Sequence record: PP925822.1
Reading direction: 5' to 3' (one strand)
Source of the DNA: Escherichia phage Kalemo
Length of the DNA stretch: 50,469 bases
Below the pieces are notes generated by a model. That model saw only the letters and a list, made by a program, of their open reading frames with translations, was not told the origin of the DNA and did not search any database. A program made the translations under genes and the position numbers. Shown in pieces: positions 50,130 to 50,310 of this stretch. Numbering within the stretch: position 1 is the stretch's first letter; each line of letters opens with the position of its first letter.

Positions 50130-50310
50130 AATCCTCTATAATACATTGAAAATAAAGATTATTTATTTATATATATCTATAATGTTTTCTTTTTGTTCTC
50201 ACTGTTACAGTGCTTTTTGTTGGGTGTGGCGTGGTTGTGTGTTGGTATATATAGATAGTTGCGCGCGCGGCGGATTGCATATGTATATATACTTTTTCCG
50301 GCGGATTGCG
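50130..50310. repeat. AT/GT-rich structured control region, copy B
   Basis: ATTATTTATTTATATATAT, T-rich tract, GTGTGGCGTGGTTGTGTGTTGG, ATATGTATATATA, two CGGCGGATTGC direct repeats. Confidence 0.6.

Follow-up and report, generated by a model that had tools for sequence, protein, structure and literature searches.

The window, by which we mean the whole 50,469-bp stretch of Escherichia phage Kalemo DNA that was analysed, represents a whole genome in circularly permuted form. The phage is a T1-like siphovirus of the genus Warwickvirus (Drexlerviridae, Tempevirinae), and sequence comparison with Poky found the same junction there, with the window's last base running on into its first bases. Positions 49790-50469 thus form one continuous 680-bp intergenic region. 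On its left is an operon transcribed leftward (start near 49778), and on its right an operon transcribed rightward, of which DUF7174, starting at position 1, is the first gene. The circular permutation also explains why the gene driven by the control module at the end of the window (module B) begins at position 1. The segment at 50130-50310 shares 96-99.5% identity with Poky, tonnikala and FritzSarasin, among others, and 44 phage records are at least 95% identical over 50030-50469; the stretch at ~30.5-31.2 kb is 99.9% identical to vB_Eco_Sip. The features of the two loci are as follows.

30660-31104, plus strand: module A, the paralogous copy upstream of exoVIII/erf/ssb
31047-31074, plus strand: sigma-70 promoter A, TTGACT-16-TACAAT
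49837-49857, minus strand: T1-type 21-nt repeat, AAATAGCACTTTTTGTTAAAA, before the leftward operon
49887-49974, no strand: TAATCA zone, five TAATCA with 10-bp phasing (49887, 49897, 49907, 49959, 49969); candidate pac zone
49975-50322, plus strand: spurious ORF, 115 aa, TTG start
50038-50469, plus strand: module B, a non-coding upstream control module with its sigma-70 promoter and a short 5' leader
50038-50067, plus strand: L array, TGTTGT / TGTTCA / TGTTAC at a 10-bp period; direct repeat with the M array
50075-50086, plus strand: left GC box, GGCGGCGTGTTT; its class (GGCGTA, TCCGCA or CACCGCA) matches the right box of the same module
50115-50131, plus strand: inverted A-rich array, GGAAAAAACAAAGAAAA; inverted repeat with the M array
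50134-50194, no strand: TA-rich core, containing the conserved cTATAATAC (TATAAT at 50137-50142); candidate DNA unwinding element
50183-50221, plus strand: M array, TGTTTTCTTTTTGTTCTCACTGTTAC plus a second CTTTTTGTT; forms direct and inverted repeats and recurs in the module alignments
50222-50244, plus strand: GT-rich stretch, which varies among lineages
50245-50292, no strand: 13-nt inverted repeat, GTATATATAGATA / TATGTATATATAC, 92% complementary
50268-50278, plus strand: R1, the first CGGCGGATTGC; specific to the closest relatives
50299-50309, plus strand: R2, the second CGGCGGATTGC; the version in this phage of the right GC box found throughout the family (such as CGGCGtAAAT or CTCCGCAAnT)
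50310-50337, plus strand: R array, tandem GCGTTAACA / GCGTGAACA, then AAAAATAACAG
50344-50356, plus strand: predicted IHF consensus site, AATCAACAACTTG, ~95 bp upstream of the inferred transcription start
50384-50410, plus strand: P array and A-tract, AACAAAAACA abutting the -35 hexamer; conserved block AACAnAAAnAACA before the promoter
50411-50438, plus strand: sigma-70 promoter B, TTGACA-16-TATAAT; inferred start near 50445; RBS GGAGGA at 50459-50464

The strings that an earlier note on this DNA had picked out were recovered at 50159-50177 (ATTATTTATTTATATATAT), 50225-50246 (GTGTGGCGTGGTTGTGTGTTGG) and 50279-50291 (ATATGTATATATA). A hairpin-like inverted repeat, AGGGGA-N13-TCCCCT, lies at 49982-50006 between the TAATCA zone and module B, and is partly kept in close B regions.

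A module in two copies

We assessed the relationship between the A and B intergenic regions by alignment, and found that they align over ~430 bp with both promoters included (score 85, compared with 22.5 +/- 2.9 for shuffles). The earlier note had proposed that the segment shares its element order with 30760-30930, and the alignment bears this out over a larger stretch. Its description of the segment as copy B of a structured control region holds for the non-coding, two-copy nature of the DNA, but it missed that the promoter lies within the paralogy and overlooked the IHF-like sites, the phased arrays and the extreme duplex instability. Self-search and profile search of the window returned no third copy, such that the genome carries exactly two.

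To assess the distribution of the module we drew on IMG/VR, taking 43 loci that lie upstream of an exoVIII homologue and 45 from the surroundings of the DUF3987 helicase. Of the A-type regions, 25 from Tempevirinae were distinct and aligned well, and a profile HMM built from them matched 50032-50463 of the window (E = 6.8e-44) and B-type modules in 25 other phages, down to E ~1e-7. T1 belongs to a different subfamily, and its modules were not detected by the Tempevirinae A-module profile; it has two large gaps in the same layout (cor-exoVIII and ST1-ST77, the latter across the record ends), whose TA-rich cores align with each other at z = 13.6 relative to mononucleotide shuffles of what is low-complexity sequence, and its A promoter core is nearly identical to that of the Tempevirinae. 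Searches of the accessible literature found no description of the module, and no T1-like transcriptome, footprints or origin mapping. These results indicate that the module is real and strongly conserved, and apparently undescribed.

Alignments of A and B modules gave one element order across the family, which begins with phased TGTT arrays, a GC box, an AACA array, TATAAT, an IHF-like site, the TA-rich core and a further TGTT array, continues with the variable GT-rich stretch, a second GC box and tandem 9-10-bp repeats, and ends at the 3' side with a second IHF-like site, an A-tract and the promoter. Conserved blocks in these alignments include TTTTGTTcc-N4-TGTTCAC in the L array and AACAAAAAgAACAA in the inverted A-rich array, and the TA-rich core is the part of the module most widely conserved among Drexlerviridae. 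In window B an alternating purine-pyrimidine tract is found between the GT-rich stretch and the right GC box.

One further phage (L007 / L089, contig IMGVR_UViG_3300045988_025133) encodes an exoVIII identical to that of the window and has a nearly identical A module, with a B module only ~81% identical to the window's and different in its right half, which indicates that A and B modules have been swapped independently between phages (mosaicism). The Drexlerviridae module core was also found at 79-82% identity in several 'Campylobacter phage' records of 47-50 kb (MG065643, MG065680, MG065641 and others); these records look T1-like, and their host label may be wrong.

A second type of repeated intergenic element occurs in the same phage family. 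In TLS, most genes other than those at its sigma-70 promoters are preceded by a 21-nt repeat (aaATAGCACnnnTTGnTAAAA), the function of which is listed as an open question (PMC11447400). At least 15 copies of its core, TAGCACnnnTTGnTA, were present in the window, oriented with transcription (for example at 723, 1186, 3879, 6700, 39651 and 40721 on the plus strand and at 49334, 46802 and 30662 on the minus strand), and the repeats lie ~60-76 nt upstream of many genes. They have the 9-mer CTTTTTGTT in common with the M array; the module differs in having two copies and in being 20 times longer. The CGGCGGATTGC repeats did not match the 21-nt consensus, and TTTTTGTT, common to the 21-nt repeats, was rejected as a link, being non-discriminating (30 copies genome-wide, half of them in those repeats).

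The 11-mer pair, GC boxes and tandem repeats

Two exact 11-bp repeats in this segment, reported previously as a possible dimeric or cooperative binding site, are indeed present as R1 and R2, 31 bp apart from start to start, and the search for further copies that the earlier note had asked for returned no other exact CGGCGGATTGC in the window. When the 680-bp intergenic region was simulated with a first-order Markov model, 0.7% of runs contained an exact 11-mer repeated directly within 40 nt, and 11% contained one anywhere in the region. Among T1-like phages the exact pair was restricted to the closest relatives; within IMG/VR it was found in 14 stretches, a single one of which is from a relative (L109), the rest being unrelated GC-richer contigs.

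The two members of the pair differ in conservation. The position of R2, directly 5' of the tandem-repeat array, is conserved as the right GC box; many phages have CGGCGTAAAT as this box, and other forms are CTCCGCAAnT, TTCCGCAAnT and CCACCGCAAAT. R1 is without a counterpart in most B modules and in all A modules, copy A of the window showing no more than a degenerate one. It is positioned between the arms of the 13-nt inverted repeat, which brackets TGCGCGCGCG as well as R1 and is accompanied by alternating purine-pyrimidine runs. Judging from its arms this repeat could form a cruciform, but neither Z-DNA nor a cruciform was retained as a conserved feature, as TGCGCGCGCG and the inverted repeat are not kept beyond close relatives.

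The conserved partner of R2 is instead the left GC box, ~220 bp upstream. Left and right boxes were of equal class in 20 of the 25 distinct A modules and in every B module with both boxes readable, and they change together between lineages, although the A and B modules of one genome may differ (contig 2974746064, with GGCGTA in A and CTCCGCA in B). The R array likewise occupies the same position in all lineages as two or three tandem 9-10-bp repeats, which are similar inside one array and different across lineages (CGTTAACAG twice in L056, ATCGGTAACA twice in L077, CGTGAACA twice in TLS and CGATTAACA three times in T1). As read from these alignments, such a pattern of boxes and arrays would be typical of sites for a protein of drifting specificity, or of repeats homogenised by conversion.

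A cooperative protein site therefore remains a plausible part of the original proposal, but the pair is not a conserved unit, and its 'three helical turns' spacing is probably a lineage-specific elaboration. It is quite possible, at somewhat less than even odds, that the exact pair has no function of its own, R1 having arisen recently in a single lineage by local duplication or conversion, and R2 alone, as the conserved right GC box, being of importance. The restriction of the pair to the closest relatives, the single right box in most B and all A modules, and the merely degenerate counterpart of R1 in copy A all point in this direction, whereas the close relatives that were inspected directly keep the pair, its chance occurrence within 40 nt is unlikely (P ~0.007), and R1 sits precisely in the loop of the 13-nt inverted-repeat arms. 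The noteworthy object is the duplicated, family-wide module and not the 11-mer pair.

CGGCGGATTGC also occurs as spaced or tandem repeats with a 10-20-bp period in unrelated phage contigs of higher GC content (L099 4611-4651, L100 2021-2071 and L111 2777-2827, and also L104 and L106). These repeats lie inside genes of ~300 aa that match PHROG 'replication initiation protein' families, a layout like that of lambda ori inside gene O. The likeness to the T1-like box is probably a coincidence.

Omega of pSM19035, MetJ, and ParR at parC are repressors that bind short tandem repeats. The module resembles their sites in having 7-11-bp repeats, direct and inverted, upstream of or around a promoter, an arrangement that implies cooperative binding. 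Unlike in those systems, no ribbon-helix-helix or ParR-like protein was identified in the phage, and the likeness is one of DNA layout only.

Promoters, IHF sites and duplex stability

All A and B modules examined end in a sigma-70 promoter in the module alignments, and the modules thus belong to two of the few promoters usable by unmodified host polymerase. TLS is reported to have only three sigma-70 promoters, all of them intergenic (PMC11447400 Table S1), with P01 upstream of gene 1, P51 upstream of exoVIII and P57 before the operon of a Cro-like regulator and primase (PMC11447400). P01 is B-type and homologous to the promoter of module B, and P51 is A-type. The module B promoter had been called the strongest consensus promoter, in line with which it was the sole 12/12 match in the window. 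The third early-promoter region, homologous to TLS P57, is an 87-bp gap (37150-37236) between the Cro-like regulator and an SF2 helicase, in which a 21-nt repeat was present and no A- or B-type module was found.

Matches to the IHF consensus WATCAANNNNTTR numbered five in the window, two of them in modules. Across the family, 14/25 A and 16/25 B modules carry the consensus at two fixed places, always on the same strand, compared with 4% of shuffles. It appears as AATCAAnnnnTTA after cTATAATAC in most lineages, and the ATCA..ACTTA block is an exact consensus in Kalemo (50344-50356). The P array and A-tract beside the -35 hexamer resemble an UP element and could act as one, with the limit that by inspection the distal half of the A-tract region fits the UP consensus poorly.

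Duplex stability was calculated from nearest-neighbour stacking energies along the 50.5-kb genome. Cores A (30763-30823) and B (50134-50194) were the two least stable segments of the genome at 30, 60 and 100 bp (z 4.1-4.8; core B at 4.1-4.6), and the homologous cores of T1 ranked first and second in that genome (z 4.8-5.9), well clear of the next segment (z 3.2-3.8). In the window, stability was next lowest after the two cores at 33414-33514 (z ~4), at the convergent junction of the ssb operon and a tail-fibre gene. TATATA is rare, and 8 of its 19 copies genome-wide lie inside the two modules. Fourier power was discarded as a measure of TGTT/AACA word periodicity, as shuffles hold far fewer such words and the values were uninterpretable.

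We consider it about an even chance that the segment is the central part of a ~430-bp upstream nucleoprotein control module of an early promoter. Host RNA polymerase would start at TTGACA-16-TATAAT, aided by the A-tract beside the -35 hexamer, and IHF would introduce one bend at about -95 and a second within the TA-rich core, such that the phased TGTT/AACA arrays and the GC boxes could be folded back onto the promoter. A sequence-specific factor, probably phage-encoded, would bind the tandem 9-10-bp repeats and the flanking GC boxes, with CGGCGGATTGC as Kalemo's version of the right box bound by that factor, and its binding would set, or later shut off, early transcription. The very unstable TA-rich core, lying between divergent units where negative supercoils would gather, may couple DNA unwinding to promoter opening. 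Both the binding factor and the direction of its effect, activation or shut-off, are inferences.

Several lines of evidence point to such an early-promoter control module. The A/B paralogy of ~430 bp takes in the promoter, the profile match is strong (E = 7e-44) and there are exactly two copies, an arrangement to be expected if a separate control region is required for each early promoter. A sigma-70 promoter closes every module, two of the three reported for TLS are A- or B-type (PMC11447400), and no other site in the window matches the consensus at 12/12 positions as the B promoter does. The fixed positions of the IHF consensus relative to shuffles, the single GC-box class per module and the likeness of repeats within each R array are also consistent with it, and no coding or RNA signal was detected. 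Against it, the only recognisable regulator is a Cro/YdaS-like HTH protein (36673-37149, minus strand), which nothing ties to the module sites; the third, P57-type sigma-70 promoter is without a module; the ~370 bp of constrained upstream DNA, which includes the least stable segment of the genome (about -260 to -310), is far above known phage early-promoter needs and looks at least as origin-like; and the different GC-box classes in the A and B modules of one genome are a misfit with a single co-evolving factor. Boxes for the host response regulators OmpR, PhoP and ArcA were rejected on spacing and orientation.

The promoter PL of lambda has an IHF site and a distal UP element, and the upstream activating sequence of ilvPG combines IHF with supercoil-induced duplex destabilisation. 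As in both, the module has a strong sigma-70 promoter with an IHF consensus ~90 bp upstream, A/T-rich upstream DNA able to contact RNA polymerase if bent, and an easily melted segment. Unlike both, it has ~370 bp of constrained DNA, two IHF-type positions and two paralogous copies, phased arrays in both orientations together with GC boxes, and an unstable core ~260-310 bp upstream, which is much further away.

Replication, packaging or a product as possible alternative roles

Promoter control and replication initiation are both candidate roles for the module, singly or together. We regard as somewhat unlikely, though deserving of weight, that the modules are phage replication origins, either single or as a cooperating pair, a role that may co-exist with promoter control. 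The TA-rich core would then serve for unwinding, a phage initiator or primase-helicase would be assembled by the IHF sites together with the lineage-specific tandem repeats and GC boxes, and divergent transcription would supply negative supercoiling. The rank of the A and B cores as the two least stable segments, in both the window and T1, is consistent with such a role, as are the location of the core between divergent transcription units and the IHF sites beside it. The short tandem repeats are iteron-like in being alike within an array and different across lineages; module A drives the exoVIII/erf/ssb operon; and the spaced CGGCGGATTGC repeats inside lambda-O-like initiator genes of unrelated phage contigs give a weak lead.

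Other results argue against an origin. The DnaA box TTWTNCACA was found in 2/26 A and 1/26 B modules, at no conserved position, and a DnaA-dependent origin was rejected in view of the lack of conserved DnaA boxes. Classical iterons (three or more repeats of ~17-22 bp) were not present in the modules, which have only the two or three tandem 9-10-bp repeats and the phased TGTT words. No Rep- or O-like initiator was found among the 10 proteins scanned, which comprised a primase, two helicases and a Cro-like HTH protein among others. The paralogy also extends over promoter and leader, neither of which an origin requires.

Iteron-type origins beside a rep promoter are known from pSC101 and R6K gamma, and lambda ori is a related case. 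The module is like them in its AT-rich unwinding region, IHF site, lineage-specific tandem repeats and adjacent promoter, and unlike them in repeat length (9-10 compared with 17-22 bp), in having no DnaA boxes and in the lack of a recognisable initiator gene adjoining it. In phage P4, the alpha primase-helicase binds TGTTCACC iterons in two cis-acting regions, ori and crr. The presence of two related cis regions in each genome and the TGTTCAC-like words of many Tempevirinae modules recall this arrangement, and the T1 primase is annotated as similar to P4-type alpha proteins. Unlike alpha, the Kalemo primase (341 aa) has a zinc-ribbon match only and no match to the solved P4 origin-binding domain, and T1 has GTAACA/TGTTAC words instead of TGTTCAC. 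Searched against PDB sequences, none of three proteins (primase, HTH protein and DUF3987 helicase) matched the P4 alpha origin-binding domain, and this lead was set aside as a resemblance only. The fuller proposal is less probable again, and we hold it as unlikely: that the two modules are origins in which supercoil- or transcription-activated unwinding elements, IHF sites, 9-10-bp iterons and matched GC boxes are fused to early promoters, and which perhaps act as a pair 19.5 kb apart in the manner of P4 ori and crr.

To our knowledge, the origin, the early-gene control and the exact pac site of T1 have never been defined at the sequence level. No origin could be found in the TLS (2024, PMC11447400) and SU57 (2020) studies, which leaves room for an origin of this kind in T1-like phages.

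Packaging was also considered, and we judge it very improbable that the small terminase recognises this segment as part of pac. The starts of the T1 and TLS records (position 1, from pac mapping) and the annotated terminal repeat of T1 put the packaging end in the same divergent intergenic region, the SU57 paper places pac in the corresponding region, and the core holds AAGATTATTTAT, similar to the pac core of P22 as cited for TLS (PMC11447400). However, the module is duplicated at ~30.8 kb and T1-like phages package from one pac, making it a poor candidate, and its AAGATT word is missing from copy A and from most B modules. The mapped ends, like the T1 terminal repeat, lie to the left of the module, in a TGATT/AATCA-rich zone equivalent to the TAATCA zone of the window, which is precisely the part of the B intergenic region absent from copy A. 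TAATCA is enriched in the region (P ~5e-4), and the zone at 49887-49974 is the better candidate for pac or small-terminase binding.

The ORF at 49975-50322 had been taken as spurious in the earlier note, and we reached the same conclusion: its frame is shifted in a 96%-identical relative and broken by stops in others (tblastn and stop-free stretches, 25 B modules), Pfam gave no family for it, and in FritzSarasin the curated BASEL annotation shows no gene in either module gap. Rfam at gathering thresholds gave no match in the whole window, no tRNAs were found in it, and RNA folding on both strands was no better than shuffles (z -0.3 and -1.2), on which grounds a structured RNA was dropped as a reading. 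That the region encodes a product, either this ORF or a small structured RNA, is accordingly the least probable reading, to be discounted almost entirely in spite of a hypothetical protein annotated here in some GenBank records, a conserved TATAAT (50137-50142) that could act as a -10 element, and a weak, non-conserved hairpin followed by a T-run at 50200-50221. In Poky (L001 3199-3528 and 3643-4140), gp62 is the spurious ORF over the module, and the ATG annotated as the start of gp63 falls within the -10 hexamer (window 50437) and precedes by 11 codons the start served by GGAGGA; both gp62 and this start look like annotation artefacts.

The analysis removes a spurious gene annotated in several GenBank records and separates the module from the adjacent TAATCA-repeat zone as the better pac candidate. 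The module itself is a concrete, testable object, present in two copies and family-wide, ~430 bp long and with a defined order of elements, and it holds the two most easily melted sites of the genome and two of its three early promoters. The resulting map of constrained intergenic DNA is useful for engineering T1-like phages, including BASEL phages and therapy candidates.
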